Shown: piece by piece, positions 8,004 through 49,580 of the stretch
How positions within the stretch are numbered: position 1 is the stretch's first letter
How the letters are laid out: each line of letters begins with the position of its first letter
DNA from: a virus
Taxonomy: Duplodnaviria > Caudoviricetes
DNA length: 64,000 nucleotides
IMG/VR virus record: IMGVR_UViG_3300037400_006508
Location: 64,001 to 128,000 of that record
Strand: one strand, 5' to 3'
Position numbers and translations under genes: made by a program
The notes under the pieces: model-generated
Databases searched by the model: none
Told to the model about the DNA's origin: nothing
The model's input: the letters and a program-made list of their open reading frames with translations, nothing else

Positions 8004-8224
8004 GCGAGGAGAATGAGAAGACGCGTGGCGTGGTAGAGGTCTTCGGCAGGAACATCCTGCGCGGTCCGCTTCTTTCGTCCGACGACGCCACGACGATCGT
8101 CATACGGAAGAGGGATGGGAAGCCCATGGCCCTGTTCGCCAGACTGGTCGACGACACGTGGGCCTTCGGCAACGAGGGCGATTCCGACTGGGAGAACGTG
8201 AAGGCCAGGTTTGGAGTTTCCTAG
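8000..8224 (+). CDS. Small hypothetical protein
   Basis: ATG at 8000 overlaps the upstream TGA; MSEENEKTRGVVEVFG...FGVS. Confidence 0.65.
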   Translation: MSEENEKTRGVVEVFGRNILRGPLLSSDDATTIVIRKRDGKPMALFARLVDDTWAFGNEGDSDWENVKARFGVS

Positions 8225-8239
8225 GCATTTTGGTATCAT
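8211..8239 (+). promoter_or_regulatory. Putative promoter TTGGAG-N17-TATCAT (TTTTGG-TATCAT extended -10)
   Basis: Matches the recurring TTTTGGTAnnnT motif seen before several other genes. Confidence 0.4.
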
Positions 8240-8246
8240 GGGGCAA

Positions 8247-8570
8247 ATGTCAGAGGCATACAGGACTGGATTCTACGCGAAGTGCGCCGAGGCCGGCATC
8301 GATCCGATGCTGGCCGACGTTTTGTACAAAGCCGCCGAGAACGGGGACCCGAACATCGCCAGGGCCACCGAGATATTCAAGGACTATCTGACGAACAGGA
8401 GGGTTTGCGTACGGAACGGAGAGACGCTCTCCGGGATAGCCAGCCGCAACGGAAAGAGCCTCCAGGAGGTCATGGAGGCCAATGGGATGTCTTCGCCGTA
8501 CGTGAAGCCCGGCCAGGTGCTGAAGATCCCTCTGATGTCGGTAGGAAAGGCGGGTAGGGATGCCACCTAA
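8247..8570 (+). CDS. LysM-domain protein carrying the shared YxxGFxxKCAE...KxA leader
   Basis: VRNGETLSGIASRNGKSLQEVMEANGMSSPYVKPGQVLKIP is a canonical LysM; leader MSEAYRTGFYAKCAEAGIDPMLADVLYKAA. Confidence 0.85.
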   Translation: MSEAYRTGFYAKCAEAGIDPMLADVLYKAAENGDPNIARATEIFKDYLTNRRVCVRNGETLSGIASRNGKSLQEVMEANGMSSPYVKPGQVLKIPLMSVGKAGRDAT

Positions 8571-15600: not shown

Positions 15601-16776
15601 GCGAACGACAATTACTTGAGAAATATAACCTTTGAGACGTCGAGTAGCACACTCACACTTAACACGTATGCCTTCAGTGCGTGCTTTTATAGTGGATCGA
15701 CGGCAGCCTCGATCGACCTTTCGCCGAGGAAGATTACTTCTATACCAAACTACTGCTTTAACAATTGCAGGTATTTGAAGGGCATAGTATGGCCTCAAGG
15801 ATTGACCAGTATTGGAGGATCTGCGTTCCGGTACTGCTTCTACTATACTGCTAGCACAGGCACTGTGGAAATCCCAGAGGGTGTTACGAACATCTCTGGC
15901 ACCTATGCGTTCGCCAACTGCCTATACTTGACCGCTGTGACATTGCCAAGCACATTGACCAACCTCAACAACTACACCTTCTATTATTGCACGAGGCTGG
16001 CGACCATCACTTCCAACAGGTCAACGGCTCCCACGGTGTCCTCCGCCACATTCGGCAACAGTTCAACTTACTATACGGGCAGGACATACTACTCGACGGG
16101 AAAGAACAGCCTATATGTGCCAGCAGGAGCAACCGGGTACAATGCATCTTACTGGTCGAGCGTTTTGTGCAACAGCTCCATGTGCGGATTTACTCTTATC
16201 GAGAATTCCATACAGGAGGTAGAATATATCACGCTTACGACAGCGCCTTCCGGAACAATGAGCACGAATGACGGAAACATTCTTCCGATCGACGTCGTTC
16301 CGGGCACTTCTACAGAGCTGGAGATAGACTGGGTTGTGAACAACTCTACAGGAAACATACTGTTTGGAATCTCGTCGTCCAGCGATTCTGCGGATTTCCG
16401 CATATTCTCAACCAACTCTAATTATTACTATGATAGGGGGTCCGGGAGGCTGAGTCCGTCGTATACCACGTTTGGAGTCGGGCTGGGTACGAGGTTCAAG
16501 ATAAAGGCCGGCAACTATTATCTTCAGAACGTGACGGGAGGATATACTGCAACAGGAACAAGTGCGGCGTATACACCGCAGTCTCCACAGTGTCTTGGAT
16601 TCTGGGGGTACACGACGATATACTCCTGCAAGGTGTGGGACGGTAATACGCTTGTCCGTAGTCTTACGCCGGCCAGAATAGGGCAGAACGGAGGATTGTA
16701 CGACTCCGTTTCAGGCAGATTCTTCAGGGTGATCGGTAATGGCGCGTACACGCTTGGATCCGATGTGACGCAGTAG
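12700..16776 (+). CDS. Multidomain adhesin / receptor-binding protein: four lectin/LamG-like repeats, InlB B-repeat-like, PKD-like and BspA-type LRR domains
   Basis: Repeats Y(L/I)ESTGTQY(V/I)DTG...LVRDFVPVR..LYD; TVTFDA..YGILPTPTKSGEVFLGWF; VDWGDGTT..HTYS; LPSTVTSIGSYAFYYC-type LRRs. Confidence 0.8.
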   Translation: MYPIPANAARIQYLESTGTQYVDTGVVPTINTKFVYDMRLTDVENTSYFGSFSANNRFQLTNTLSNSRTVFRFACGISSDSAIDTNIAADTDRHLFSIDLGGGSCVVSVDDSTFTRTIGTSLVDGYSVYLLSRHNVNGASASKGALYAAKHYENGILCHDWVPVRVGTVGYLFDRMSGQLFGNQGTGDPFVLGPDDFSIFSHSVKHVEVVSSRPYDAEVEYIESTGTQYIDTGFDFASSHDFTISLYFDLLKRRDPSENNYLFSCIDSSAWLSCEIDRSSPYRAYANVGTKTLIYCGPSPYPFNSWDIFTFSVNVNSQQYTIAGGNWSTSGTYTGTLPSGRINLLTGRNLASTGSRPFVRIGYVKIWDNGTLVRDFVPVRVGTEYCLYDKANPTSGDNGDGLYHNKGTGAFLGGSDTGPSIVLAGRVLGDSSGTVKAVRKHYDMPVQYTIDECNGNAPTAVNVYFPSGKYSALNYTPTWEHHRFVGWYTSRYAPLEYVYKAAEADAYVDSGIAAENKGTWETDIRFSTSGNCRYIGVGTSGSTAKISAGLQSPSSTTMIPSCYETWNDSPLTTIDTTTRHFLRYVFQPGNQQFYCDGVLHMSSTKTSVTVPNCNIGIFECVNQDGTRHTYHKSRAVYLYECKLYNSSGVLVRHFLPVSDYSGDAALYDLVSNQLFYSQTSTKLEAGSAETETAVSPSDAVVFDRSTVYARWQLPTTVTFDATTNGGQMPSGWVSPDYYEGQPYGILPTPTKSGEVFLGWFTSGGTRVTTSSVVSAGTLTARYAAVTYDTSFQVTTTSSYRKTGIYSANRYSSSDPIVVDWGDGTTDVVYGNISQLAHTYSGASTYTVKISDNISTFCPSYSNTTWYQTTSQNQYTFKKVLTLSSKVTQLSSYAFYYCSAMTDAIIPSKATSIPTSCFYYCSQLKSSSVQLPSTVTSIGSYAFYYCRGSSFISIMIPASVTSIGSYAFANDNYLRNITFETSSSTLTLNTYAFSACFYSGSTAASIDLSPRKITSIPNYCFNNCRYLKGIVWPQGLTSIGGSAFRYCFYYTASTGTVEIPEGVTNISGTYAFANCLYLTAVTLPSTLTNLNNYTFYYCTRLATITSNRSTAPTVSSATFGNSSTYYTGRTYYSTGKNSLYVPAGATGYNASYWSSVLCNSSMCGFTLIENSIQEVEYITLTTAPSGTMSTNDGNILPIDVVPGTSTELEIDWVVNNSTGNILFGISSSSDSADFRIFSTNSNYYYDRGSGRLSPSYTTFGVGLGTRFKIKAGNYYLQNVTGGYTATGTSAAYTPQSPQCLGFWGYTTIYSCKVWDGNTLVRSLTPARIGQNGGLYDSVSGRFFRVIGNGAYTLGSDVTQ

Positions 16777-29622: not shown

Positions 29623-32600
29623 ATGGCGGACGGCCTTCCAGAGGGACTTCGTGAATTCGACGACGCGAAGGCGACGCGGAAGCTCATTTACGACAATGTG
29701 CTTTCCGCGGTGCAGAAGCGTTTTCCTGTAGAGGACGACAACTACAGGCTCGAGCTCCTCGACGCCAGGTACGGCGGTCCGCAGGAGTATACGCTGGCTC
29801 AGCAGAAGAACGCCATCTTGCGCAATAGAAACCTAAGGACTCCGATTGTCGGCAAGTGGCGTCTGACGGACAAGAAGACCGGCCAGGTGCTCGACGAACG
29901 CGAGGACCAGGTCATGCAGGTCCCGTACTGGACCGACCGCGGCACCATCATCAACAACGGGTCCGAGTACACGGTCATCACGCAGTCCAGGCTCCGTCCG
30001 GGCGTGTACGCCAGGCGCAAGACGAACGGAGGCCTGGAGGCGCAGTTCAACATCGATCCAAGGACGGGTCATTCGTTCAGGATAGGCCTGAACCAGCAGA
30101 CCGGCGTGTTCGACGTATCCGTAGGGCAGGGCCACATACCTCTGTACCAGGTTCTTCGCGGTCTCGGCGTCGACGACAAGGAGATCATCAGGAACTGGGG
30201 CGCGGATCTTACGGCGGCCAATGCGCAGAAGTCGGATCCGCAGGCGTGGAGGAAGCTCTACGAGCGTATGGCCGGGTACAGGGCGGATCCGAATTTGACC
30301 GACGCGGACAGGATGGAGTATGTCAGGAACGGTCTTACGTCGTATAAGGTCGATCCGGACATCGTCGAGAGGACGATGGGACTCCGCAACGTGTCCGGAG
30401 TCACCCCGCAGCTGCTCATGCGTGCGTCGCAGAAGCTTCTTAACATATCTCGCGGCGACGAGAAGCCGGACAATCGCGACAATCCAAGGTTTTCGGCTTA
30501 CTACTCGATCGAGGACTTCCTCAAAGAGCGCGTTGACAAGGATGCTGGTCGTCTCACAAAGTCGCTTCTGTTCAGGGCAAGGAGAAATAGAAACCTGAAG
30601 GGAGTCCGCAGGGACGCCCTCGCCCCGTATGTGGATGCGTTCATCCAGGGATCCGGCCTTGCGATGCCGGGAGAGGAGGCGAATCCGCTCTCCACGCTCG
30701 AGCAGATGTCCAGGATATCCAAGTTCGGCGAAGGAGGAATCCAGTCCGAAGAAGCCGTAACCATGTCCGCCCGCGAGGTGAACGGGGACTACCTCGGGTT
30801 CGTAGATCCGGTAGCCGGTCCCGAATCGGGCAGGATCGGCGTTGACGTCAGGGCCACCTACCATACGTACAAGGGCAAGGACAACAAGATCTATGGCGAA
30901 TTCCTGGATGCAAAGACGGGAAAGACGGCGTACGTCGACATCGGAACCGCCGCTGACAGAAAGATAGCCTTCCCGGGTCAGGACATGTCGAAGCCGTACG
31001 TGTATATCATGAAGGACGGCGTTCCGCAGATGGCTCCGACGTCGGAAGTGCAGTATATTGTTCCGAACTACGGGCGTGTCGTCGGGTCGAACACCAACAT
31101 GAATCCGTTTCCGACGGCCGTCCAGCCGAACAGGCAGTTCTACGCGTCGAAGTTCTGGACGCAGTATCTGCCGCAGGCGAAGGGCGAGGTGCCGTTGGTG
31201 GACTCGCTTATGCCGGACGGGAAGCAGACCTGGAGCGAGTACTACGGCAGGAAGGTCGGAGCCGTCAAGTCCGATGTAGACGGAGTCGTTACGCGTGTCA
31301 CGGACGACTCGGTCACCATCAAGGACAACACGGGCAAGACGCACAAGGTGGAGCTCGTCAAGAATCTTCCGTTCAACAGGCTGTCCGGCATTTCGTTCAG
31401 TCCGTCCGTCGAAGTCGGGCAGGACGTGAAGTCCGGCGACATGATCGCCCATTCCAACTTCACGGACAAGAAGACCGGTGCGATCAACATGGGCCAGAAC
31501 CTGCATGCGGCGATCATACCGTACAGGGGATACTCGTTCGAGGACGCCCACGTCATATCGGAGTCCGCCGCGAAGAGGCTTGCGACGGACAGGCTGTACA
31601 GTTTCGACCATGATTCAAGAAACGGCGTCATACTGGACAAAAAGAAATACATATCCGCGTTTCCGTCCAAGTTCACCAAGGATCAGATAGAGACGCTTGA
31701 CGACAATGGCCTTGTAAAGCCGGGTACGATACTCCACAGGGGAGATCCCATTGTAACTTCTCTCGGGCCAAAGGTTCTTACCTCGTCTGACAAGGCTCTC
31801 GGCAAACTGTCCAAGGCGCTGAGGAATTCGTATACGGACCGCACGGAGACATGGGAGCACGACTACGAGGGGAAGGTCGTAGACGCCGTAAGGACGGCCG
31901 GAGGCGCGAAGGTGAACGTCGTTGCGCAGCCGCCGGTCAGGGCCGGGGATAAGCTTTCCGGAAGGTTCGGGCTGAAGGGTGTCGTCGGAAAGGTCGTTCC
32001 GGACGACGAGATGCCGAGGGACGCCACAACGAACCAGCCGTACGACATGCTCATCAATCCGATGGGCTTTCTTTCGCGAGTGGCGCCGGGCCAGATCATG
32101 GAGATGGCCATGGGCAAGGTCGCCAAGGCGACCGGAAAGCAGGTTCGCATACCGCAGCTTCCACCGCCGGAGGGATGGTACGAGTGGACGAAGAACCAGC
32201 TTGCTCAGAACAATCTAACGGACTCGGCCAATGTGTTCGATCCGACCACCGGAAAGACCATAAACAACATAGGCGACGGGTATCTGTTCATATCGGCGTT
32301 CCACCATCTGGCCGAGAAGAAGGAGTCGATGCGGGGCGCCGGAGACGCCGCGTATACGCAGGACGAGCAGCCGGCGAAGGGCGGAAAGACCGGCGCGAAA
32401 CGTTCGTCCGGCCTGGACAACTGGGCCATGCTGTCGCATGGGGCCACGGACGTGCTGAAGGACGCCGTTCTGATCAGAGGAACGAGGAACGACAATTATT
32501 GGAACTCCCTTAAGCTCGGCCTTCCTCTTCCCGAACCGGAATCTCCGTTCATCTACAAGAAGTTTCTCAATACGCTCAGGGCCGGCGGCATCAACGTAGT

Positions 32601-34005
32601 CGAGAAGGGAAATATCACCAAGATCATACCGCAGACCGACAAGGATGTCGAACAGCTCGCGAACGGCCGGGTCATATCGTCGTCCGAGATGGTCGATTCG
32701 TCGTTCGATCCCGTAAAGGGCGGTTTGTTCGATCTTGGAAAGACCGGCGGAATGGCCGGCAACCAGTGGTCGATGATCGAACTTCCGGAGCCGGTTCCGA
32801 ATCCGATAATGGAGGAGCCGGTCAGGAGGGTTCTCGGTCTTACCGTGTCCAAGATGGAGGATGTTCTTGCCGGAAGAGAGAAGATCGACGGAAAGACCGG
32901 CGGCGAGGCGCTGAAGTCCGCGTTGGCGAAGGTTGACGTCGACAAGAAGATCGCCGACGCGAAGAGGGACATACTCGGCCAGCGTGGGGCGAAGAGAGAC
33001 GACGCCGTCAAGGTATATAGGTACCTGACGGCCATGAAGGAGCAGGGTCTCAGCCCGCAGGATTGGATGGTGTCGAAGGTTCCCGTCATACCGCCTGCGT
33101 TCAGGCCGGTGTCCAAGATGGGAGACGTAGCCCTTGTGTCCGACATGAACGACCTGTACAAGGACATCATAGAGAACGCGAACAACTTCAGGGAGCTGAA
33201 GAAAGACGTTTCCGACGAAGGCGTTGCCGACGAGAGGATCAATATATACAACTCCGTCAAGGCCGCGTACGGCCTGGGACAGCCGATCACGCCGGAGAAC
33301 GCCGCAAAGGGCGTCAAGGGCGCACTGAGGCAGGTCATCGGGTCGAGTCCGAAGTTCGGACAGTTCCAGTCGAAGGTTCTATCGAAAACGCTCGATAACG
33401 TAGGGCGCGGCGTCGTGACGCCGGATCCGAATTTGGACATGAACCAGGTTGGAGTTCCGGAGAACATGGCCTGGGAGATGTACAAGCCGTATGTGTTGCG
33501 AGGGCTCGTGCGGACGGGATATCCGTCGGCCACCGCCGTTAAAATGGTCGCCGACAAGACGGATACGGCCAGGCATATACTGGAGAAGGAGATGGAGGAG
33601 CGTCCTATCATCATGGATCGCGCCCCGACGTGGCACAAGTTCAATTTCCTTGCCTTCACTCCGCATATAACGCAGGACGAAACGATACGCGTATGTCCTC
33701 TTATAGTAAGCGGGTTCAACATGGACTTTGACGGTGACACGGTGAACATGCACGTACCGTCGTCACAGAAGGCGGTTGACCAGGCCAAGCGCATAATGAT
33801 GCCGTCGGAGAATTTGATTTCTACCACCGACCTTTCCTCTCCCATGCACTCCCCGTCGAAGGAGCAGATCTTTGGGCTGTACGCCGCTACGTCGAAGGTG
33901 AACCAGAAGCCAGTCAAGGTGTTCAACACCGTTTCCGAGGCCAAGAGGGCGTATGCGGCCGGCGAGATAGAGATGAACGACCCGATAGAGATTCTACAGA
34001 AATGA
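29623..34005 (+). CDS. Phage DNA-directed RNA polymerase: beta subunit fused to the N-terminal (catalytic) half of beta'
   Basis: Beta motifs GYSFEDA, GDKLSGRFGLKGVV, NPMGFLSR, HHLAEKK, QPAKGG. Beta' motifs GGLFD, PVIPPAFRP, SDMNDLY, DRAPTWH and catalytic FNMDFDGD (NMDFDGD at 33718-33738). Confidence 0.95.
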   Translation: MADGLPEGLREFDDAKATRKLIYDNVLSAVQKRFPVEDDNYRLELLDARYGGPQEYTLAQQKNAILRNRNLRTPIVGKWRLTDKKTGQVLDEREDQVMQVPYWTDRGTIINNGSEYTVITQSRLRPGVYARRKTNGGLEAQFNIDPRTGHSFRIGLNQQTGVFDVSVGQGHIPLYQVLRGLGVDDKEIIRNWGADLTAANAQKSDPQAWRKLYERMAGYRADPNLTDADRMEYVRNGLTSYKVDPDIVERTMGLRNVSGVTPQLLMRASQKLLNISRGDEKPDNRDNPRFSAYYSIEDFLKERVDKDAGRLTKSLLFRARRNRNLKGVRRDALAPYVDAFIQGSGLAMPGEEANPLSTLEQMSRISKFGEGGIQSEEAVTMSAREVNGDYLGFVDPVAGPESGRIGVDVRATYHTYKGKDNKIYGEFLDAKTGKTAYVDIGTAADRKIAFPGQDMSKPYVYIMKDGVPQMAPTSEVQYIVPNYGRVVGSNTNMNPFPTAVQPNRQFYASKFWTQYLPQAKGEVPLVDSLMPDGKQTWSEYYGRKVGAVKSDVDGVVTRVTDDSVTIKDNTGKTHKVELVKNLPFNRLSGISFSPSVEVGQDVKSGDMIAHSNFTDKKTGAINMGQNLHAAIIPYRGYSFEDAHVISESAAKRLATDRLYSFDHDSRNGVILDKKKYISAFPSKFTKDQIETLDDNGLVKPGTILHRGDPIVTSLGPKVLTSSDKALGKLSKALRNSYTDRTETWEHDYEGKVVDAVRTAGGAKVNVVAQPPVRAGDKLSGRFGLKGVVGKVVPDDEMPRDATTNQPYDMLINPMGFLSRVAPGQIMEMAMGKVAKATGKQVRIPQLPPPEGWYEWTKNQLAQNNLTDSANVFDPTTGKTINNIGDGYLFISAFHHLAEKKESMRGAGDAAYTQDEQPAKGGKTGAKRSSGLDNWAMLSHGATDVLKDAVLIRGTRNDNYWNSLKLGLPLPEPESPFIYKKFLNTLRAGGINVVEKGNITKIIPQTDKDVEQLANGRVISSSEMVDSSFDPVKGGLFDLGKTGGMAGNQWSMIELPEPVPNPIMEEPVRRVLGLTVSKMEDVLAGREKIDGKTGGEALKSALAKVDVDKKIADAKRDILGQRGAKRDDAVKVYRYLTAMKEQGLSPQDWMVSKVPVIPPAFRPVSKMGDVALVSDMNDLYKDIIENANNFRELKKDVSDEGVADERINIYNSVKAAYGLGQPITPENAAKGVKGALRQVIGSSPKFGQFQSKVLSKTLDNVGRGVVTPDPNLDMNQVGVPENMAWEMYKPYVLRGLVRTGYPSATAVKMVADKTDTARHILEKEMEERPIIMDRAPTWHKFNFLAFTPHITQDETIRVCPLIVSGFNMDFDGDTVNMHVPSSQKAVDQAKRIMMPSENLISTTDLSSPMHSPSKEQIFGLYAATSKVNQKPVKVFNTVSEAKRAYAAGEIEMNDPIEILQK

Positions 34006-34175
34006 AGAAGTACGATCTTAGTTACCATATCTTGTTGAAGATGGCCGGTCTTGAGAAGGACGCATGGCCGTGGAGCAGCCGTGCGCCCGCGTTCGACTAT
34101 TCCAAGGCGCAGATAGACACGTCGGTCGGCAACAACGCGTATAGAAGCTTCAACAAAGCGTACGCCGGTGCGTGA
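34002..34175 (+). CDS. 57-aa protein with KxA motifs (not in the ORF track)
   Basis: ATGA overlap with the RNAP stop; MKKYDLSYHILLKMAGLEKDAWPW... Confidence 0.55.
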   Translation: MKKYDLSYHILLKMAGLEKDAWPWSSRAPAFDYSKAQIDTSVGNNAYRSFNKAYAGA

Positions 34176-34187
34176 TTGGGGGCTAAA

Positions 34188-34673
34188 ATGACACCATACG
34201 AACTTGGTTTTTTGAAAACTGCGCGGGCCAAGCTGTCTGACAGCGACGTGGAAGCCTTGCGCGAGATGATGGCGCAGCAGAAGGAGAACGCGAGGCAGCG
34301 CGAGCTGCGTCGTACCGCAAGGTTCGACAAGAACCGCAAGGAGCGCGTAAGGGATGCGAAGAACTACATGATGATAATCCTCGGCCTTGCCGGATTCATG
34401 GGCGGAAGGCTTGCGGGAGGCGCAATCGGAAAGTCGATCGGACAGCCCGGAGACATGACGCACAACAAGGGTGCTCTCATCGGGTCGCTGTCTGGGTTGG
34501 TTGCCGGAGGAATAGGCGGACGTTACTTCGGAGAAGGGGCAGGAAACAGGACCGCCGACAGGATGGAGCAGATCGAGAAGGACACCGGGATACGAGTCAA
34601 CGAGCAGGAGACGGAGAACCTGGCCCGCACGACGAACAACCTGATGCTCTACAACACGTTTTTCAAACACTAG
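34188..34673 (+). CDS. Glycine-zipper membrane protein with a truncated leader
   Basis: MTPYELGFLKTA; GLAGFMGGRLAGGAIG..GALIGSLSGLVAGGIGG. Confidence 0.75.
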   Translation: MTPYELGFLKTARAKLSDSDVEALREMMAQQKENARQRELRRTARFDKNRKERVRDAKNYMMIILGLAGFMGGRLAGGAIGKSIGQPGDMTHNKGALIGSLSGLVAGGIGGRYFGEGAGNRTADRMEQIEKDTGIRVNEQETENLARTTNNLMLYNTFFKH

Positions 34674-34703
34674 TTGCCTACATCGGCACATTTTTGGTAA
34701 AGT
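34674..34703 (+). promoter_or_regulatory. Putative promoter TTGCCT-N18-TAAAGT (TTTTTGG-TAAAGT)
   Basis: Intergenic; shares the TTTTGGTAnnnT motif. Confidence 0.45.
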
Positions 34704-34729
34704 AGATGTCAAGCAAGGAAGGACACAAC

Positions 34730-35272
34730 ATGTTCGACTACAAAGGATACAAGGAACTTCAGGACGTACTGTCCAAGAAGGCCCAGTTCGTGCCGATGGG
34801 CGGAGACCCTGCGGCGGGTGGAATGCCTCCGGGCGATCCGGCGGCTGGTGGAATGCCTCCGGGCGATCCGGCTGCGATGGGCGGCGCGATGCCTCCTGAC
34901 GCCGGTGGAATGCCTCCGGTAGATCCCGCCGCAATGGGAGGAGACCCCATGGCCGGTGGAATGCCGCCGGTGGATCCGGCGATGATGGGAGGGGCGATGC
35001 CGCCAGGGGCCGATCCAATGGCCGGTATGCCCGATCCTGCGGCTGGCGACGTTTCTCCGTCAGGTGAGCCGTACATGAAGATAACGCCGACGCAGCTCAG
35101 CAAGCTGTTCAAGCAGTTCGCAGAGGTGTTCAAGAGCGTGCTTGGAATACAGCAGCCGGCCGGTGCTGCTCCGGCGGCTCCGGCGGCTCCGCAGCAGGAT
35201 CCTAATCTAGCGGCGAAAGTCACCGAAGTCGACGCGAAGCTCAATGCTCTAATAAACCAGATCGGAGGTTAA
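34730..35272 (+). CDS. Low-complexity Gly/Pro/Met protein with a KxA leader
   Basis: MFDYKGYKELQDVLSKKA followed by GGMPPGDPAA repeats. Confidence 0.75.
   Translation: MFDYKGYKELQDVLSKKAQFVPMGGDPAAGGMPPGDPAAGGMPPGDPAAMGGAMPPDAGGMPPVDPAAMGGDPMAGGMPPVDPAMMGGAMPPGADPMAGMPDPAAGDVSPSGEPYMKITPTQLSKLFKQFAEVFKSVLGIQQPAGAAPAAPAAPQQDPNLAAKVTEVDAKLNALINQIGG
34795..35050 (+). repeat. Imperfect tandem coding repeat (GGMPP(G/V)DPAA units)
   Basis: Repeated ggtggaatgcctccgggcgatccggc-like units. Confidence 0.85.
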
Positions 35273-35276
35273 TTAC

Positions 35277-36254
35277 ATGAAGAGGGAAAATCTTGTCAAG
35301 ATCGCATCTGCCGTACGCAGGCGCCAGTGCAAGAACGCGCTATTGAAGGTTGCGCAGAAGTACAGTTTTACCCCGACTGGCGCCGGGGAAGACACGGATG
35401 CAATAGCTGCAGCCAAGGCGGAAGAACTCAGGAGGCAGATGATTGATGCCGATGTCGCCGAGGAGAGAGCGCAGGAGGCGGCAAGAAAAGCGCAGGAAGA
35501 AGCGGATACCAGGGCTTTTATGCGGGAACACGAACTGGATAAGATAAAAAGTCCGTGGGATAAACCACAATCAGACTTGTCCGCAAACGCTATTTACGAC
35601 GTAGATCCGGAGGAACCAATAGACTGGAATAGTCCGGAGTTCAAGGAGCTTTCAAATCTTACGCCGAATGAAACCGATTGGCCTGTAGGCATCGTTGCCA
35701 TGGATTCAAATGGCAGGATCAGACCCACAATGCCAGCGGAGCAGGCCTCCGAGATAGTAAAAAATCTTAATCTTCCAAAACCTGCACCGGAAGCAAAACC
35801 TGCCCCTGCAGCAAAACCTGCCCCTGCAGCAAAACCTGCACCTGCCGCAGCTCCTGCAGCAAAACCTGCACCTGCCGCAGCTCCTGCAGCAAAACCTGCA
35901 CCTGCCGCAGCTCCTGCAGCAGCAGCCCCTGCAGCAGCCCCTGCAGCAGCCCCTGCAGCGAAGCCGAATAAGGCGCCGTCTGCCTGGTCGAAGGGCCTGT
36001 CGTCAATCAGAAGCGGTCTTTCAGACGTAGGAAACGCAATCGGATCTGCAGCCGGATCACCGGTTGGACGCGGAATAGCGGCGGGCGGAGTTGCAGGTGC
36101 CGTCCTCCTCGCGCTCAGCGAAATGAACAAGAAGAAGGAGCGTAGGAATTATCTTCGTAGCGCCATCCTTGGACTTCTTGCCGGCGGAATGTTCGGTGCC
36201 GCCGCGGGGCATTATGCCCCAGGGGCGTTTACCGCCAAGCCAACCACGGCGTAG
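35277..36254 (+). CDS. Protein with a KxA leader, an Ala/Pro/Lys repeat linker and two C-terminal glycine-zipper helices
   Basis: LVKIA...LLKVA; AKPAPA repeats; GIAAGGVAGAVLLAL and AILGLLAGGMFGAAAG. Confidence 0.75.
   Translation: MKRENLVKIASAVRRRQCKNALLKVAQKYSFTPTGAGEDTDAIAAAKAEELRRQMIDADVAEERAQEAARKAQEEADTRAFMREHELDKIKSPWDKPQSDLSANAIYDVDPEEPIDWNSPEFKELSNLTPNETDWPVGIVAMDSNGRIRPTMPAEQASEIVKNLNLPKPAPEAKPAPAAKPAPAAKPAPAAAPAAKPAPAAAPAAKPAPAAAPAAAAPAAAPAAAPAAKPNKAPSAWSKGLSSIRSGLSDVGNAIGSAAGSPVGRGIAAGGVAGAVLLALSEMNKKKERRNYLRSAILGLLAGGMFGAAAGHYAPGAFTAKPTTA
35777..35965 (+). repeat. Tandem coding repeat (AKPAPA / AAPA; 18- and 30-nt units)
   Basis: gcaaaacctgcacctgccgcagctcctgca occurs three times, plus shorter units. 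Confidence 0.9.
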
Positions 36255-36256
36255 AG

Positions 36257-38116
36257 ATGCCGACAACGATCGGCCAGATCTACGTAAATGAAGCCCTTCC
36301 TCCGGAGTACCGTGACTACAACAGGGTCATGGGCGCTCCGGAGATGAAGGGCATTCTGACCGACATAATCAATAACCACCCGGACAAGTACAGGGAGGTA
36401 TCGGCCGCCCTCATGCGAGCAGGAAACAAGTTCGCGTACGAGGGAGGTACGACCCTTAGGCTGTCCGACGTGGCTCCGCCCTTTGACAGAAAGCCGCTGT
36501 ACGCGTCGATAGAGAAGGCCGAGAACGCGATACGTTCATCCAGGCTGTCCGACGACGAGAAGAACGAGCAGCTTAAGTCCCTCTACGAAAAGGCGTACGA
36601 AGCCATAAAGGGCGATACGTACGACGTGGCTCTTGCCGCCAACAATCCGTTCGCCCTGCAGGTGAAGTCGAAGGCGAGAGGCGACCCAAACCAGTTGTCG
36701 GCCATGCTGTCAACGCCAGGCGTGTATGCGAACAGCAAGGGCGAGACGATCCCCATGTTCATCAAGCATAGCTACGCGGAGGGGCTTTCACCGGCGGAGA
36801 TATGGGCCGGAGCGTACGGCGCCAGACTAGGAACAGTGTCGACGAAGTTCGCGACGAGGCAGGCCGGAGAGCTTGGAAAGCTCCTTACGTCCGCGTCGAT
36901 CGATCAGGTAGTTACGGAGGATGACTGCGGTACGATCAACGGGATGCCGGCAAGCGTTGACGACAACGACAACATAGGCGCCCTTCTGGCGTCTCCAGCC
37001 GGCGGATACGATGCCGGTACGATCATAACGAAATCGGTTCTGTCCGATATAAGGAAGTCGGGCGCCACCGACATACTGGTCAGGTCTCCGATAACATGCG
37101 GTGCCAAGAACGGGGTATGTTCGCATTGCGCCGGGGTCAGGGAGACCGGAGGCCTTCCGCCCGTCGGGTACAACCTCGGTACGAACGCTGCGGCGGCTCT
37201 AGCCGAGAGGCTGGCCCAGGGTTCTTTGAACGTAAAGCACAGCGGAAAGAAGAACAAGGGCGCCGGACAGTACCAGGGGTTCGAGATGATCAAGCGCATG
37301 GCGACGGTGCCGAAGAACTATGCGGACCGCGCCACCGTTGCCGAGCTGGACGGAACGGTCGACAAGATAGTCAACGCCCCCCAGGGAGGCCATTTCGTAG
37401 TAATAGGCGACCAAAAGCACTATGTTCCTTCCGGGTATGACATTCTGGTCAAGGAGGGCGATTCCGTCGAGGCGGGAGACCAGCTTTCTGATGGGGTCAT
37501 CAGTCCGGCCGACGCCGTCAGGCTCAAAGGCATCGGCGAAGGCCGCAGGTACTTTGCGAACAGGTTCACGAAGGCGTTCAGGGATTCGGGCTACGCCGTG
37601 AACAGAAGGAACGCCGAGGCCGTCGCAAAGGCGCTCATAAACAATGTGGTGGTCGAGAGCGAGGACGCCGAGGCGCAGATGCTGCCGGGCGATACCGTCA
37701 CCTACGGCAGATGGTCATGGGGATACAAGCCGCGTCCGAATTCGACGCAGCTGTCGCCGAAGGCGGCGATAGGGCAGTATCTCGAACAGCCGGCCCTTCA
37801 CTATACGATAGGCACCAGGATCACAAAGAAGGTCGCGGACGAGCTTACGAAGTTCAAGGTACCGGCCGTGTTGGCGAACAAGTCGGCCGTCGGAGTACGT
37901 CCGGAGATGCAGTCCGTCGTGCAGACGACAGGAAACACCGACGACTGGATGGCGAGGCTGGGCACCACGTATCTCGGCAAGAGACTGACGGAGGACGTAC
38001 AGCGCGGCGCCGAGTCCAACGTCCATGGGACGAATCCGTACCCCGGTATAGCGAAGGGTACCGAGTTCGGACAATGGGGTTCGCCCGGACACAGGGACGG
38101 GCCGTACTATTACTAG
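36257..38116 (+). CDS. Phage RNA polymerase beta' C-terminal half (bridge helix, Zn site, trigger loop, SBHM)
   Basis: Starts TTIGQ..N..LP; SKARG..Q; SYAEGLS..E...AYGARLG..T..AG.L..L...VVTEDDCGT; VRSPITC...GVC..CAG; AAAALAERLAQGSLNVKHSG; EGDSVEAGDQLSDG. Confidence 0.93.
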   Translation: MPTTIGQIYVNEALPPEYRDYNRVMGAPEMKGILTDIINNHPDKYREVSAALMRAGNKFAYEGGTTLRLSDVAPPFDRKPLYASIEKAENAIRSSRLSDDEKNEQLKSLYEKAYEAIKGDTYDVALAANNPFALQVKSKARGDPNQLSAMLSTPGVYANSKGETIPMFIKHSYAEGLSPAEIWAGAYGARLGTVSTKFATRQAGELGKLLTSASIDQVVTEDDCGTINGMPASVDDNDNIGALLASPAGGYDAGTIITKSVLSDIRKSGATDILVRSPITCGAKNGVCSHCAGVRETGGLPPVGYNLGTNAAAALAERLAQGSLNVKHSGKKNKGAGQYQGFEMIKRMATVPKNYADRATVAELDGTVDKIVNAPQGGHFVVIGDQKHYVPSGYDILVKEGDSVEAGDQLSDGVISPADAVRLKGIGEGRRYFANRFTKAFRDSGYAVNRRNAEAVAKALINNVVVESEDAEAQMLPGDTVTYGRWSWGYKPRPNSTQLSPKAAIGQYLEQPALHYTIGTRITKKVADELTKFKVPAVLANKSAVGVRPEMQSVVQTTGNTDDWMARLGTTYLGKRLTEDVQRGAESNVHGTNPYPGIAKGTEFGQWGSPGHRDGPYYY

Positions 38117-43797: not shown

Positions 43798-45249
43798 ATG
43801 TCTTTCAAGGAACAGCTTAAAAACGAGATACTGCCTAAGGCGGTTGAGTACTACAATAGTGGTACCGGGATCAACGAGTCGATCGTCAAGGCGGCGTCCG
43901 ACTTCAATCTCAATCTGGAGCAGACGTACCGTCTCCTGGAGACGATGAACACGGCCAGGACGATCGCGCACTACGAGAAGAACGCGGAGGACAGGACGCA
44001 GAACTTCGACATAGCCGACAAGGACGTTGTTCGGAGGATGCTGTTCTCGGACGGTACCGAAAAGAAGGCGTCAGCCGACCAAGGCGGCTGGTTCGACTAC
44101 TCTTCGTACGACTCGCCGGAGCGAGACTACCTGGAGGAAAGGACGGACGGTTCCGTGTTCACGAAGGCCGCCGAAGCCAACGAGCCTGGAGTCAAGGAGT
44201 TCTCGCGCAGGCAGGTCATCGAGAAGGTTGCGTCGTACAAGAACGAGCTGACAGAGCAGCACAATTTCGCTTCTGGCCGCGAAGAGATGGCCAAAGACTG
44301 GCTTGCTACGTCCATATCCAAGCTTGCATCCGATCTGTCCCGCGGGTACGAGCCGGAGAGGCGGTACGCCATGTTCAAGGTGGCTTGCGGGAGGGGGGAT
44401 GTCGTTTCTGCCGTCGAGAAGGCGATGCATCCGTCGATCGTCAAGGACGCCGCCCCCCATGTCAAGACGCTAAGGCGTTCCAATGTTTTCGACCCTTCCG
44501 AGGTGGAGGAGCAGCTCAAGCTTGCAGAGGAGGTCTACGAGGGGTCCAAGCTGGTTGACAGGATACACTCCGTAGTCGAGTCGCTTTCCAGGAAGGAAGC
44601 GGAGGCTAGGGATCTCCTTGCCAAGTATCAGGCTACGCAGACGGAGGGAAAGCTCGATTTTTTCGGCTATAAGGAAGCCCAGCAGGGACCGGCCGGGCAC
44701 CCGAGAAACCCACCGGGTAGAAATGGAAGGAACGGCGGCAACAACGACGATGACGACCATCATCACCATCGGGGGGCATGGTTTGGACGCGGCATAAAGG
44801 CAACGTACAACGCGCTTGCACCGGATGTACGCGGAAATACTCTACAGACGAACATAAACGACTACATCTCCGGCAGCCTGCTCACTCCCGAGGCCATCAG
44901 CAAGATACTGGACAAGGAAGACAAGAAGGAGGACAGGACCCTTCGCGAAGAGATAGACAATATGCGCCGTAGCGCCATTCTTTCCGAATTGTACGCCGAC
45001 GACGATATCATCAAGGAGGCCGACCCCAACGATGTTGCCAGTGCGTATAAGACCCTGGTGATGGCGGCTCCGGATCTTTCGCTCAACAAGGAGGCGGTAA
45101 GATCGGTCCTGCGCCAGTCCGTCAATTCGGTAGCCGTGTCTCCGTTCGATGTCAAGCAGTGGGCCGATTACGACAAGACGGTTGCCGAGGCAAGGGAACA
45201 CGGACTGAAGGCCGACTATTACGAGAGAGGACTGTTCAGGCAGGCATGA
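43798..45249 (+). CDS. Helical KxA-rich hypothetical protein (candidate head core protein)
   Basis: VKAA, EKKA, TKAA, EKVA, SKLA, VKDA, LKLA, YKEA; a DDDDHHHH tract follows KEA. Confidence 0.65.
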   Translation: MSFKEQLKNEILPKAVEYYNSGTGINESIVKAASDFNLNLEQTYRLLETMNTARTIAHYEKNAEDRTQNFDIADKDVVRRMLFSDGTEKKASADQGGWFDYSSYDSPERDYLEERTDGSVFTKAAEANEPGVKEFSRRQVIEKVASYKNELTEQHNFASGREEMAKDWLATSISKLASDLSRGYEPERRYAMFKVACGRGDVVSAVEKAMHPSIVKDAAPHVKTLRRSNVFDPSEVEEQLKLAEEVYEGSKLVDRIHSVVESLSRKEAEARDLLAKYQATQTEGKLDFFGYKEAQQGPAGHPRNPPGRNGRNGGNNDDDDHHHHRGAWFGRGIKATYNALAPDVRGNTLQTNINDYISGSLLTPEAISKILDKEDKKEDRTLREEIDNMRRSAILSELYADDDIIKEADPNDVASAYKTLVMAAPDLSLNKEAVRSVLRQSVNSVAVSPFDVKQWADYDKTVAEAREHGLKADYYERGLFRQA

Positions 45250-45653
45250 AAATCAACGTGAAGCAGAACAGGATCAACTCGGTCCTGAGCGTGATCGTGT
45301 CCACGTCGGATTGGTCGAGGCACGAGCTGGATTCCATCGTAAGGTTCGGGGAGCCGACGATACAGATCGGCGGAAAGTTCGTCAAGCTGTGCACAAGATG
45401 CCTCGTACCGAGGTGCCCGTTCGATGACAGCAACGATCTTCCTGAGAACTGCGAATTCTACGTCGCCGAGGCCGAGAAGAAGGTACGGAGCGACTTCCCG
45501 ATCATGGTGGAGTTCGGCCCGGACGATTTCGACGAGCCGGAACTCTGCGCCAGGTCGTGGACAGACGAGATAGTAGGCAGGATCGTAGACGCCGTCAGGG
45601 AGCTTCGGCAGACTTCAGCCGACATAGTAAGGGAAGAGACGTACGAGGTCTAG
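45246..45653 (+). CDS. Hypothetical protein
   Basis: ATG at 45246 overlaps the upstream TGA; CTRC..RCPFDDSNDLP. Confidence 0.65.
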   Translation: MKINVKQNRINSVLSVIVSTSDWSRHELDSIVRFGEPTIQIGGKFVKLCTRCLVPRCPFDDSNDLPENCEFYVAEAEKKVRSDFPIMVEFGPDDFDEPELCARSWTDEIVGRIVDAVRELRQTSADIVREETYEV

Positions 45654-45659
45654 CAGGAA

Positions 45660-46976
45660 ATGAACGAGATCGATGTAACCAGAAGCGACGTCGACCAGCT
45701 GTACAAGCTGGCGTTCCACAGTCGTTCCGGCCTAGAGAAGCAGGCGGACGGCGGAAATCCGTTGTACGGTGCGCTGATAGGCGGTGGTCTGGGGCTTATA
45801 AACCATGCGATAACGCCCAAGGATGAGGACGAGTCCGAGATCGGCAGGCTTCTCAGGCATGTGCTCGGAGGGGCCGCTCTTGGCGGACTCGCCGGATATG
45901 GCGTAGACGCGTTCAAGAGTTCCGGTGTCGGTCGTACCGTAAACAGCGTTGTGTCAGGCGACGATTCCGCCGGCGACAGCAAGCCAACGCAGAACTTACT
46001 AGACGTTCTTGGCCTTGGGAACAAGCCGGCACCGGCGGCCGATTCGTCTTCCGCAAGTGGAGCCGGCGGTGCATCAGCGGGAGGATCTTCATCGGGAGCA
46101 TCCGGCGGTTCGTCCGGAAACGGCGGCCCGTCTTCCGGTGGCGGTTCGTCGCCGGCACCTGCGAAGGAGTATGATCCGAAAAAGTATCCGGAAAACGGAA
46201 ATGCGGGCGAGATTTTCCAGTGGGGGCTGGATAATAAGGTTATTCCGGCAGCTATAACAGGAGTATCCGCAGAGGTAGCTCCAGCGGCCGCCGGTGCTGT
46301 ATTGAAGGCAGACGCGAGGCGTGCGTCGCAAGCTGTCATAGACAGGGCTACAGCTGCTTCGAGGGAACCTGTTTCATTGGAAGTTACAAGGGACCCAACA
46401 ACAGTTACTTTTGATCCGCCTCCGGCGCACGATATTGCGGGTAGAAACATAAATCCAAGGTCTGGCGGAGAAAATCCGCAACAAAGGACGGTAAGGGGCA
46501 GGCACGGCAGCACGGTTACTACAACTGTGACGAATACGGAGCGGTTCAGCGACCTTCTTGATGCATCTAGACAAAATTTAAAAGGCGATAGACTTGTACA
46601 GCATCTTGTAGACAGAGGGTTGATAGATAGAGATATGGTCGATGGACTCCAGAGACTTAGATCTGGCAATAGAGCGGATAGGAGATTTGCTCGCCGTGTA
46701 GTCAGAGACTATGAAAGAGCTGTCGAGAAGGCAAGAAAAATTGAAAGAAGCGTAGATACTGTAGCAAGAAGGGGTACCTGGGGGTCTAAAGCGCGCATTG
46801 GTACAGAACGAACGCTGGGCAAAGTACTAGCTAGTGGATTTCTACGCCATTCGTTGGCTGTTATTGGAGTTGGATACGAATTTTGGACCAATAATCACAT
46901 GTCGCCGACGGGAACTGAAGTTGAAAACGCCTTCGATAAAGCAACGCGTTCGTTCGGTGGAGGAAACGGACTGTAA
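45660..46976 (+). CDS. Glycine-zipper protein with a KxA leader, a Gly/Ser linker and a basic AT-richer C-half
   Basis: LYKLA..LEKQA, then GALIGGGLGLI and VLGGAALGGLAGYG. Confidence 0.7.
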   Translation: MNEIDVTRSDVDQLYKLAFHSRSGLEKQADGGNPLYGALIGGGLGLINHAITPKDEDESEIGRLLRHVLGGAALGGLAGYGVDAFKSSGVGRTVNSVVSGDDSAGDSKPTQNLLDVLGLGNKPAPAADSSSASGAGGASAGGSSSGASGGSSGNGGPSSGGGSSPAPAKEYDPKKYPENGNAGEIFQWGLDNKVIPAAITGVSAEVAPAAAGAVLKADARRASQAVIDRATAASREPVSLEVTRDPTTVTFDPPPAHDIAGRNINPRSGGENPQQRTVRGRHGSTVTTTVTNTERFSDLLDASRQNLKGDRLVQHLVDRGLIDRDMVDGLQRLRSGNRADRRFARRVVRDYERAVEKARKIERSVDTVARRGTWGSKARIGTERTLGKVLASGFLRHSLAVIGVGYEFWTNNHMSPTGTEVENAFDKATRSFGGGNGL

Positions 46977-48394
46977 TGAGCCTTGTAAAACTGATTCATT
47001 CATCGTCCTGGGATCCGACCATAGGAGTCGGCGCAGAAATCGTCAGGCGCGAGGGGGAGCTCAACAAGCAGGCCTCCACGATCTTCGGCAAGGAATACGA
47101 CGAATTGAAGCCGGACGACAAGTCCGTGGGCATACATGTCGTGGCTCTCGGGGACGCCGAGCATTACGGCATGAACAGGAACGGCGACCTGTTCTCCAAG
47201 AAGGCGTGCGTCGAGTACCATCCGACGTTCCTGGACGGATGCGTGTACAGGCACCACAGGAACAAGGATCCGGAGACGCAGGGCATCGGAAAGATCGCCG
47301 CGGCCACGTACAACGAGGACATGGGCCGCGTCGAGCTGTTCATACACGCGGACAAGGAAAAGGCGGCTCCGGAGCTGGAACGCCTAGAAAAGGAGGGCGA
47401 GATCCCGTTCTCCATGGCCTGCGTGGTACCGAACGACCGCTGCTCTATCTGCGGGTCTCTCAGGAAGTCGGCCGGTGACGAGTCCGAGTGCGAGCATGTC
47501 AGGGACCATCTCGGGGAGCAGTGGGACGACGGAAGGAAGGTCGGCACGTTCAACGACCAGCCGAAGTTCTTCGACATCAGCTTCGTCGGTCGCCCCGCGG
47601 ACAGGATCGCCTGGAATCTCAAAGTCGCTTCTGCCCTTGACCTTGATTCCGTGAAGTACGCCGAATACGAGGGAGTGACGGCGCCGGACGATCTAATGGT
47701 GGAAAAGGAGTCCTCCGTCAGGAAGCTCGGATACGCAAGGGATATCGTAGACATGCAGAACTCCTTCCGCGGGTGGTTGACCAAGTCCGCGTCCGTCGTT
47801 ACGGCCAGGGACGGGTATCTTTACGAATTCAGGAAGATCGCCGCGGACTCTCTCGACGATGCCACGTTGTCCAGGCTCAGGGAGCTTCCGGTCAAGTCCG
47901 CCATGTCCATACTTTCCAGACGCGGAATAGTGATGGACGTGCCGACATTCTTCAAGTACGCCACGGGCGACGACTACAAGTCGGTCGTCGAACCGTACAT
48001 GGAGCCGGTAGAACGCACAATTCCACATCTTGTCGAATCGCTTGTTAAGACTTCGTCTGTATCCCCTCTTTGCAACGATGACACTTACGATTCGTACGAT
48101 CCGTCGGTACCCGTTTCCGTTCCATCCGCGTTGGAGTCCATGCTAGCGAAGCATGCGTCCAGCGTGGGTGACAGGATAATGGATGCGACTATGGACGATT
48201 CCGTCTGCCGGCCTGTGTACTTTGTTGACACGAAAGCGGATAAATGCGTAAATGGTGGCGTCGTGCAGAAGCTGGCTTCTGCGTATCTTTCTTATCAGCT
48301 TTCCGCGATAGACGCGGTAGTGAACGGCCATAGTGGCATCAGCAAAACAGACGCGGAGGCGCTGGCTTCCGTAAACAACCTACAAAAGAAGTAA
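46976..48394 (+). CDS. Prohead maturation protease (HK97/assemblin-like serine protease with a Zn-binding insertion)
   Basis: NRNGDLF, YRHH, FSMACVVPNDRCSICG, FFDISFVGRPAD; lies directly upstream of the scaffold and capsid genes. Confidence 0.78.
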   Translation: MSLVKLIHSSSWDPTIGVGAEIVRREGELNKQASTIFGKEYDELKPDDKSVGIHVVALGDAEHYGMNRNGDLFSKKACVEYHPTFLDGCVYRHHRNKDPETQGIGKIAAATYNEDMGRVELFIHADKEKAAPELERLEKEGEIPFSMACVVPNDRCSICGSLRKSAGDESECEHVRDHLGEQWDDGRKVGTFNDQPKFFDISFVGRPADRIAWNLKVASALDLDSVKYAEYEGVTAPDDLMVEKESSVRKLGYARDIVDMQNSFRGWLTKSASVVTARDGYLYEFRKIAADSLDDATLSRLRELPVKSAMSILSRRGIVMDVPTFFKYATGDDYKSVVEPYMEPVERTIPHLVESLVKTSSVSPLCNDDTYDSYDPSVPVSVPSALESMLAKHASSVGDRIMDATMDDSVCRPVYFVDTKADKCVNGGVVQKLASAYLSYQLSAIDAVVNGHSGISKTDAEALASVNNLQKK

Positions 48395-48398
48395 CCAC

Positions 48399-49580
48399 AT
48401 GGCTACACTGATCAGAGACCTGATGAACCAGGTAGAGGCTTTCTGCAAGGAGGCCGGAGAGCGCGAATCCGAGAACATCACCGGACAGGATCCGGACTCG
48501 ATGCCCGGTTCCGAGAACGACAAGAACATCCCCGAGGGCGCTACCAAGGACGATCCGAAGGTGAAGGACGAGACCATCAACAACACGGACGCCCGCAACC
48601 TGGATGGCGCTACGCCTGGATCCGACGCCCCAGTAGTCGAAAAGGGGCTCGAGTCGTCCGAGGCTGTGCTCAATCCCGACAAGAAGCCCCTCGACACGGC
48701 CGATGCCAACGCCAAGGAGGCGTCCGCGCTCGGCAACAACCTCGTCAGCATGATCCTCGGCGCCAAGAAGGCCGCCGCAGAAAAGAAGGCCGCAGAGGAG
48801 AAGAAGGCGGCTCCGGCCGAGAAGAAGGCCGAGCCCTCCGCCAAGATCACCGTCGACATGGCCATGATGGCCAAGATCGCCGCGATCACCCTTGCGGACG
48901 AGGAGGGCCAGCTCGCCGTACAGTCGGCTCTGACAAAGAGGGCCGGTGCAGAGTTTGCGGCAGAGGTGTTCGGCATCCTGGAGAAGCGCGCAGCCGAGGA
49001 GAGGGCCCGCTACGAGTTCGAAAAGGGCGCGCAGGACGCGGAGGCAATGATCGGAGACCTGCAGGAGGCGCAGGGCGCAGCAGATGCGGAAGCAGCTTTG
49101 GCTGGAGCCGCCGATGCCGCACCAGCGGAGCCTGCAATGGGAGCCGACGAGGCAGCAGCGGCGCTTAATGACTTTTCGGCCGACGAGGTCGCAGAGGCCG
49201 TCCAGGAGCTTGCCGACGAGGGACAGATCGATCCGGCGACAGCCCAGCAGGTCGCAGAGGCCGTACAGGGTGCCGCAGCCGCGGAAGGCGCATCGACGGA
49301 TGTTTCTGAGGATGATCTTGCCGACGCCCTTACCGAGGCAATCGATTCTGGCGAGCTTACCGTAGAGGATGCGCAGGCCCTTATCTCTTCTCTTTCCGAA
49401 GGTGCGTCCGATGGCGCGGCCGTCGAGGAGCTGAAGAGCGATGTGGCAGGCGACGCCGCACCGGCGGAGGCTGCTCCGGAGGAGTCACCCGAGGCCGAGA
49501 AGGCGGCTGCGGTGAAGAAGGCCGCGGCGAAGGAGATGGCGACCAAGCTCGTGGACGCCATCAAGAGCATGAAGAAGTAA
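48399..49580 (+). CDS. Putative scaffolding protein
   Basis: Acidic, Ala-rich and helical; between protease and capsid; many KxA motifs. Confidence 0.65.
   Translation: MATLIRDLMNQVEAFCKEAGERESENITGQDPDSMPGSENDKNIPEGATKDDPKVKDETINNTDARNLDGATPGSDAPVVEKGLESSEAVLNPDKKPLDTADANAKEASALGNNLVSMILGAKKAAAEKKAAEEKKAAPAEKKAEPSAKITVDMAMMAKIAAITLADEEGQLAVQSALTKRAGAEFAAEVFGILEKRAAEERARYEFEKGAQDAEAMIGDLQEAQGAADAEAALAGAADAAPAEPAMGADEAAAALNDFSADEVAEAVQELADEGQIDPATAQQVAEAVQGAAAAEGASTDVSEDDLADALTEAIDSGELTVEDAQALISSLSEGASDGAAVEELKSDVAGDAAPAEAAPEESPEAEKAAAVKKAAAKEMATKLVDAIKSMKK

Follow-up and report, generated by a model that had tools for sequence, protein, structure and literature searches.

A fused beta/beta-prime(N) gene and a separate beta-prime(C) gene in a tailed phage, predicted to form a two-chain bacterial-type RNA polymerase

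The stretch analysed here (the window, 64,000 bp) covers bases 64001-128000 of the IMG/VR record IMGVR_UViG_3300037400_006508, a 143,525 bp record of an uncultured phage whose completeness was estimated at 95% by CheckV; coordinates are those of the window unless "genome" is written. Most long open reading frames (ORFs) of the window are carried on the + strand, and so are two ORFs of a multisubunit RNA polymerase, which were found where the original prediction, made from the sequence alone, had placed them. The first, P0001, contains a whole beta subunit and, after it, beta-prime's N-terminal half; the second, P0002, contains the remaining C-terminal half (Table 1). This division, with beta and beta-prime(N) in one ORF and beta-prime(C) in another, had been proposed from motifs and was confirmed by Pfam, phmmer and BLAST.

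Pfam identified Rpb2 domains (Rpb2_6 at residues 552-920, E 9e-43) and Rpb1 domains 1-2 (Rpb1_2 at 1255-1393) in P0001. Through phmmer comparison with PDB, residues 67-1013 matched bacterial beta (E 5e-59) and residues 1085-1458 bacterial beta-prime (E 2e-51); BLAST against Salmonella RpoB and RpoC aligned residues 28-992 with beta 51-1337 and 1086-1457 with beta-prime 174-550, and the stretches corresponding to the proteobacterial insertions SI1 and SI2 are absent from the beta part. The catalytic lysines K777 and K785, located in 'GDKLSGRFGLKG', were invariant in 26 relatives and mark the double-psi barrel of beta. In the beta-prime part the clamp helices are conserved in the family alignment, and the Asp triad of the catalytic loop was kept in nearly all of about 120 relatives checked, the other positions of the loop being variable (NMDHDGD, NADFDGD, TADFDGD, and AADYDGD in Salmonella phage Arash). 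P0001 ends 95 residues past the DxDGD motif.

At the junction, the beta C-terminal strand 'GGINVVEKG' extends to about residue 996 (nt ~32610) and passes directly into 'NITKIIPQTDKDVEQLA...PVKGGLFD', which lines up by eye with the E. coli beta-prime start 'FDAIKIALASPDMIRSW...ERDGLF'; the earlier placing of the junction at 32580-32730 was right. The last strand of beta (GINVVEKG) and the first strand of beta-prime (NITKII) stand head to tail and linker-free, and in an AF2 model of residues 894-1460 (pLDDT 76) the two junction strands, 97-102 and 105-110, form one hairpin. The fold matches of this model were bacterial beta-prime and cyanobacterial gamma chains, the best being gamma chains. The N-terminal four-Cys zinc (Zn) ribbon of beta-prime, expected between 'GLF' and 'HIEL', is replaced by 'DLGKTGGMAGNQ', a Gly-rich loop of ~12 residues; as had been predicted, the ribbon is missing, and no Cys was found at this site in any of 26+26 aligned relatives.

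P0002 contains Rpb1 domain 5 by Pfam, and phmmer against PDB identified it as the C-terminal half of bacterial beta-prime (E 1e-45), spanning ~575 to 1347. Against Salmonella RpoC, residues 130-554 aligned with beta-prime 720-1347, with the SI3 stretch absent. The bridge helix is conserved and the trigger-loop residues K327 and H328 were invariant in 58 relatives. The four-Cys set of P0002 showed an all-or-none pattern, being complete in 14 of these 58 relatives and absent as a set in 44; since the N-terminal ribbon Cys are missing throughout, most of the family is without both beta-prime Zn sites.

Table 1. Features of the polymerase locus and the sigma-70-family gene
Feature	Position	Strand	Basis
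Fused gene P0001, 1460 aa: whole beta, then beta-prime N-terminal half	29623..34005	+	Pfam, PDB phmmer, BLAST
Beta part of P0001, residues 1 to ~996	29623..32610	+	Family alignment, BLAST
Rifampicin-pocket equivalent, P0001 residues 345-368	30655..30726	+	Alignment to T. thermophilus beta 381-452
Fusion junction	32590..32631	+	Family alignments, AF2 model
Beta-prime N half, ~E. coli 16-550: clamp helices, lid, catalytic double-psi barrel	32611..34002	+	phmmer, BLAST, AF2 fold matches
Site of absent beta-prime Zn ribbon, 'PVKGGLFDLGKTGGMAGNQWSMIELPE'	32710..32790	+	Family alignments
Catalytic loop NMDFDGD, Mg-binding Asp triad, P0001 residues 1366-1372	33718..33738	+
Four intervening ORFs: 57, 165, 188, 325 aa	34002..36254	+
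Beta-prime C half P0002, 619 aa: bridge helix ~186-212, Zn site, trigger loop ~310-345, C-terminal clamp part	36257..38116	+
Four-Cys site of P0002: C224, C281, C288, C291	36926..37129	+
Conserved neighbour, 831 aa	38176..40671	+
Sigma-70-family gene, 279 aa	genome 132329-133168, just past the window end

A whole beta fused ahead of the N-terminal half of beta-prime is a distinctive trait of a large family. A word-index search gave more than 580 relatives, and all 120 listed were fused where full-length; in an exhaustive search of 1.84 billion cluster representatives (50% identity), the best 150 matches were all fused, with an E-value of 1e-136 still at rank 150. Relatives are encoded on 116 IMG/VR contigs, and all 80 IMG/VR loci fetched gave a near-full-length match to the fused protein where the contig allows (37-73% identity); the contigs fetched reach 226 kb, and the records that were sampled are complete genomes with repeats at their termini. 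The beta-prime(C) part was absent from all 268 family proteins examined, and the distance from DxDGD to the C-terminus is 75-99 aa in 211 of 246 relatives. Cultured carriers of the two-gene layout are Salmonella phage Arash and Vibrio phages D69, D148 and D181. Megablast of the polymerase locus against 50,697 phage records gave no match.

The fusion is real and not an artefact. That it arose from an assembly error or a sequencing frameshift, or that a host rpoBC operon was recently captured, has a practically negligible chance: the same continuous ORF recurs in cultured phages and in hundreds of assemblies made independently, the fused gp206 of Arash was covered by peptides over its full length (PMC10585845), and a recent capture disagrees with an identity of just 25-32% to any bacterial subunit.

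In most of the remaining 35 of the 246 relatives, an insertion of ~500-650 aa stands right after DxDGD and was read as an intein. About four conserved sites, equivalent to P0001 residues ~402, ~740-790, ~928 and ~1352-1372, recurrently carry insertions of ~150-650 aa, of which some gave LAGLIDADG or intein-splicing Pfam matches; one site is directly after DxDGD. Such recurrent putative inteins at conserved sites would point to selection on an essential enzyme.

In this phage the two polymerase genes stand apart. In 72 of the 80 loci the P0002 gene lies downstream of the fused gene on the same strand, with a spacing from 3 nt to 8.4 kb, and in one relative 73% identical to P0001 (L008) the two genes overlap as TAATG. 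Homologues of the four ORFs that separate them here are scarce or lacking in the 80 loci, and these ORFs are probably an unconserved insertion between two formerly adjacent genes. They were also considered as extra polymerase subunits, which was rejected because they are not conserved across the family. Pfam and PHROGs revealed almost nothing in the flanking and intervening ORFs, the sole Pfam match in the intervening ORFs being a weak glycine zipper.

Through phylogenetic analysis of beta-prime(N) (30 rows, LG+C20+F+G4), 22 fused sequences including Arash and D69 formed one clade with support 100/99, separated by long branches from three bacteria and from other phage lineages; a bacterial sampling of three sequences is too thin to infer nesting or origin. 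The PDB bit scores were similar across the bacterial chains matched by P0001 and P0002, which we take to represent several phyla, and the E-values against PDB ranged from 1e-45 to 1e-59. These comparisons support a sequence that is bacterial-like rather than phiKZ-like. The lineage had been called "streamlined, bacterial-derived"; the bacterial likeness stands, and the derivation is not demonstrated by a small tree with three bacteria.

The rifampicin pocket of P0001 is altered at five positions, Q510 to G345, Q513 to M348, F514 to P349, D516 to E351 and H526 to Q361 (E. coli residues first), with R529 and S531 retained and with P349 and Q361 invariant in the family. Substitutions at Q513, F514, D516 and H526 confer rifampicin resistance in bacteria, and the enzyme is therefore predicted to be rifampicin-insensitive.

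Alpha (PF01000) and omega (PF01192) gave no Pfam match in the 143.5-kb genome, with control genomes positive. The original prediction that no alpha, omega or sigma gene is recognisable holds for the window, and for alpha and omega it holds in the whole genome, but a sigma-70-family gene was found outside the window when the rest of the genome was searched as had been suggested. The picture of a bare two-chain enzyme was consequently abandoned. The sigma protein matched Pfam Sigma70_r3 at 42.6 bits against a cut-off of 25.3, region 4 weakly, and PHROG 351 'RNA polymerase sigma factor'; no match to the Pfam model of region 2 was found in the genome, with control genomes positive, and 2.2-like and 2.4-like segments were recognised by eye in the alignment. 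It is a homologue of Arash gp10, and homologues occur in all five complete relatives sampled, with 32-60% identity.

A complex prediction of sigma with P0001 residues 1020-1460 gave a score of 0.45 against 0.07 for the best of three controls, above a mark that 58 of 80 solved complexes reached, as did 2 of 110 mismatched pairs; scores passing the mark at 0.60 or below came from just 7 of the 80 solved complexes plus both passing mismatches. The result supports the pairing weakly. The runs had at least 50% contact agreement and a partner pLDDT of at least 65, and the pass may reflect likeness to already solved sigma/beta-prime complexes. In bacterial holoenzymes the beta-prime Zn ribbon is part of the clamp surface beside sigma, and its loss from the fused protein, together with the weak complex prediction and a region 2 undetected by Pfam, would suit a sigma-like protein unrelated to this polymerase, with initiation being sigma-free or depending on an unrecognised phage factor as in the phiKZ and AR9 enzymes. 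We consider this quite improbable, for the sigma gene accompanies the polymerase in five of five relatives, both products were detected in the Arash virion, the clamp helices are conserved in the fused protein, and 2.2-like and 2.4-like segments are visible by eye in the sigma alignment. Promoter recognition is most likely performed by the phage's own sigma-70-family protein, with its region 2-like segments and its regions 3 and 4.

The cultured phages Arash (gp206, gp216 and gp10; OQ632216) and Vibrio D69, D148 and D181 have the same two-gene layout as the window. The Arash fused protein (1525 aa) covers 98% of P0001 at 32% identity, its back half (606 aa) is 29% identical, and its sigma and structural-gene neighbours are homologous to those found here. 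The second sigma of Arash, gp196, in which region 2 is detected, has no counterpart found in the window's genome. In the Arash paper the proteins are labelled 'beta' and 'beta-prime', and the fusion, the absent Zn ribbon and the absent alpha and omega are unmentioned (PMC10585845).

Mass spectrometry of the Arash virion gave the fused gp206 the top spectral count (3516, 100% coverage), above the major capsid protein, and also detected gp216 (1210 spectra) and the sigma gp10 (467 spectra, 100% coverage) (PMC10585845). In this phage the polymerase genes lie within the late structural-gene block, and in Arash they likewise lie among structural genes. The portal gene is just upstream of the polymerase in Arash, and a homologue of this portal (gp204) is encoded in the window at 3548-6211; homologues of the Arash virion proteins gp218, gp220, gp222, gp233-236 and gp13 flank the polymerase and sigma genes. 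In a large subclade the fused protein carries an N-terminal pyrophosphatase domain (InPase, E 1e-50), to which LysM and phage tail lysozyme may be added. In the relatives P0060, P0066 and P0098, InPase was observed at residues 37-169, with or without LysM and Phage_lysozyme2, ahead of the fused polymerase. This InPase clade has been assigned to head-packaged, injected polyvalent proteins with a suggested role in pyrophosphate removal for early transcription, and the N4-type alone is listed among polymerases in polyvalent fusions (PMC5512222).

The gene of an 831-aa neighbour follows the beta-prime(C) gene in 61 of the 80 loci, and its product has weak homology to gp218, an abundant Arash virion protein. 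It matched no Pfam or PHROG family, and ESM Atlas, an AF2 model of pLDDT 64 and a BFVD fold search returned no function. The neighbour could act inside the head or in ejection, with a functional link to the polymerase. Its sequence is enriched in K-x-A motifs (z 3.1), and the enrichment is strong in g150, g154 and g155 (43798-49580, +; z 5.6, 6.4 and 3.8), of which g150 and g154 match the Arash virion proteins gp220 and gp222. The enrichment in these three proteins fits the idea of a head-protease cleavage code. Neither polymerase chain is enriched (z 1.1 and 0.9), and for this reason K-x-A says nothing on packaging of the enzyme itself.

Considering the sigma gene and the virion data of Arash, we lean to the reading, which we hold to be somewhat probable, that the locus encodes a virion-packaged, sigma-dependent, two-chain polymerase of bacterial type serving early transcription. 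P0001 and P0002 would together form the catalytic core of a phage-encoded multisubunit polymerase, P0002 adding the bridge helix and trigger loop that complete the active centre. The covalent joining of beta to beta-prime(N) probably replaces the task of the alpha dimer in uniting beta and beta-prime, and if the fusion does this job, alpha and omega would be dispensable. By analogy with Arash, the enzyme would be produced late, enter the head together with sigma and leave it along with the DNA, so that early genes could be transcribed without the host polymerase.

The same enzyme might instead stay unpackaged and act as an intracellular middle or late polymerase, with early genes left to the host polymerase, which the phage sigma might redirect, and with the Arash virion detection being carry-over. 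The caution that abundant late enzymes may co-purify with particles comes from the Arash authors themselves (PMC10585845). P0001 has no envelope-breaching or targeting domain, and K-x-A is not enriched in the polymerase chains yet enriched in their neighbours. We regard an unpackaged enzyme as unlikely, though worth keeping in view: carry-over agrees poorly with a protein that exceeds the major capsid protein in spectral count, the gene is inside the structural module in both phages, and fusions to tail lysozyme and LysM in relatives would be odd for a purely intracellular enzyme.

Besides the co-purification caveat, several points weigh against a packaged, sigma-dependent enzyme. P0001 carries neither a lysozyme nor an InPase extension, and the genome contains no InPase; the Arash fused protein, at 32% identity, stands on a deep sister branch; and for this phage the virion role is predicted from the neighbouring structural genes. 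The record being 95% complete, an alpha-like gene or a second polymerase gene may be missing from it, and Pfam is blind to divergent non-homologous subunits such as phiKZ gp68; host alpha and omega subunits may also be used. The sigma could instead serve the host polymerase, and intergenic k-mer counts gave no shared promoter motif. A weak CCTTGCGA k-mer signal was rejected as a promoter because it is mostly inside genes.

Among phage polymerases, the phiKZ/AR9/YerA41 type is likewise phage-encoded and free of alpha and omega, with beta-prime split after the catalytic barrel and one version packaged in the virion for early transcription. The split beta-prime had been thought unusual, and the phiKZ-type enzymes had been thought to be split differently; in fact beta-prime is split alike in them, and they have no sigma-70-family factor (PMC7824862). 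A beta-prime N half of ~520-560 aa is likewise a protein of its own in YerA41, RP13 and IME392, and with the phiKZ-type sharing this feature, the beta-prime split is common in phages. The differences lie in beta, which in the phiKZ/AR9 type is in 2-3 pieces and unfused to beta-prime, and in the number of enzymes, two paralogous ones per genome there compared with the single copy found here. As had been stated originally, these enzymes are also far more diverged (24-29% identity, 74-112 bits). Membership in the phiKZ/AR9 type was rejected, as beta is whole and fused, sigma is present and the enzyme is in single copy.

The RpoBC fusions of Helicobacter and Wolbachia, and the engineered E. coli rpoB::rpoC fusions, likewise join the beta C-terminus to the beta-prime N-terminus, two ends that adjoin in the enzyme. 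All of beta-prime, with its Zn ribbon, is retained in these fusions, which continue to rely on alpha and omega. A full fusion of the Helicobacter type was rejected here, the chain stopping at beta-prime ~550 and the C half being found in 0 of 268 relatives. In cyanobacteria and plastids, the cut that divides beta-prime into gamma (RpoC1) and RpoC2 likewise falls past the catalytic barrel and ahead of the bridge helix, but beta is separate, and the cut is ~20-70 residues further along (gamma 556 of 626 corresponds to P0001 1455, and RpoC2 5 to P0002 22).

The mReC phages and the Kleczkowskaviridae, such as Rhizobium phage RHph_Y65, are likewise medium to large tailed phages with sequence-recognisable, bacterial-like beta and beta-prime. 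Every row considered, from one part of the mReC table, gives beta (~920-1560 aa) as a protein separate from beta-prime (~900-1370 aa), which is unsplit, with T4-like structural genes (PMC7481178). Identity with mReC was rejected on architecture and on structural genes: the portal here resembles the Arash portal, and Pfam detected no T4 families in the large structural ORFs tested, in a search that was not exhaustive. The Kleczkowskaviridae Rhizobium phage RHph_Y65 has one beta-prime of 1127 aa in its replication module, and Vibrio phage Va2 also has a whole beta-prime; the mReC phages and RHph_Y65 are outside the fused clade in the tree. The N4 virion polymerase with other head-packaged polyvalent enzymes, and the P23-45 enzyme, are delivered with DNA, as is proposed for the fused enzyme, and relatives of P0001 are fused to lysozyme or InPase. 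The N4 enzyme differs as a single-subunit T7-like polymerase (PMC5512222) and the P23-45 enzyme as a two-barrel polymerase that is highly diverged and joined to the tape measure (PMC10770324), both without a sigma-70 factor. A literature search including jumbo-phage reviews and the mReC paper found no description of the fused layout; its coverage is incomplete, so one may exist.

Elsewhere in the window, a tRNA-Met (CAT) gene (3446-3522, +) lies directly upstream of the gene for the 887-aa portal homologue, and a small ORF at 8211-8570 (+) contains a LysM domain (53.9 bits) in a gene separate from the polymerase. Within the late gene block, a family-8 glycosyltransferase domain is encoded at 10886-12307 (+), and the 1358-aa product of 12700-16776 (+) contains leucine-rich repeats of BspA type as well as Listeria-Bacteroides repeats; both are possibly host-recognition proteins.

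The multisubunit polymerases studied in phages (phiKZ, AR9, crAss and P23-45) are too diverged to inform much on the bacterial enzyme. The fused family can be aligned with bacterial beta and beta-prime, its sigma is recognisable, and it is without alpha, omega, the N-terminal Zn ribbon and mostly the second Zn site. Such a natural minimal core, putatively sigma-dependent, bears on the need for alpha and omega in assembly and on a tether as their substitute. The enzyme is a phage multisubunit polymerase, and a probably virion-borne one. A packaged enzyme would be the first polymerase of the bacterial sigma type to be carried in a virion, and the lysozyme and pyrophosphatase fusions would extend the idea of polyvalent injected proteins to a cellular-type polymerase.

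In the widest form of this proposal, which seems to us evenly balanced between right and wrong, a large and essentially undescribed lineage of 140-225-kb tailed phages would carry in the capsid, and eject with DNA, a complete sigma-70-dependent holoenzyme that does without alpha and omega and whose parts are beta::beta-prime(N), beta-prime(C) and sigma; many of these phages would have it as part of a polyvalent ejection protein with pyrophosphatase and cell-wall hydrolase. The link would replace the alpha-dimer platform, and the enzyme would be the smallest known sigma-dependent polymerase of cellular type. The cultured phage Arash, growing on Salmonella Typhimurium, makes these proposals testable, and the fused gene, being long, conserved and rich in inteins, serves well as a phylogenetic marker for this phage lineage, which is frequent in metagenomes and has hardly been annotated.

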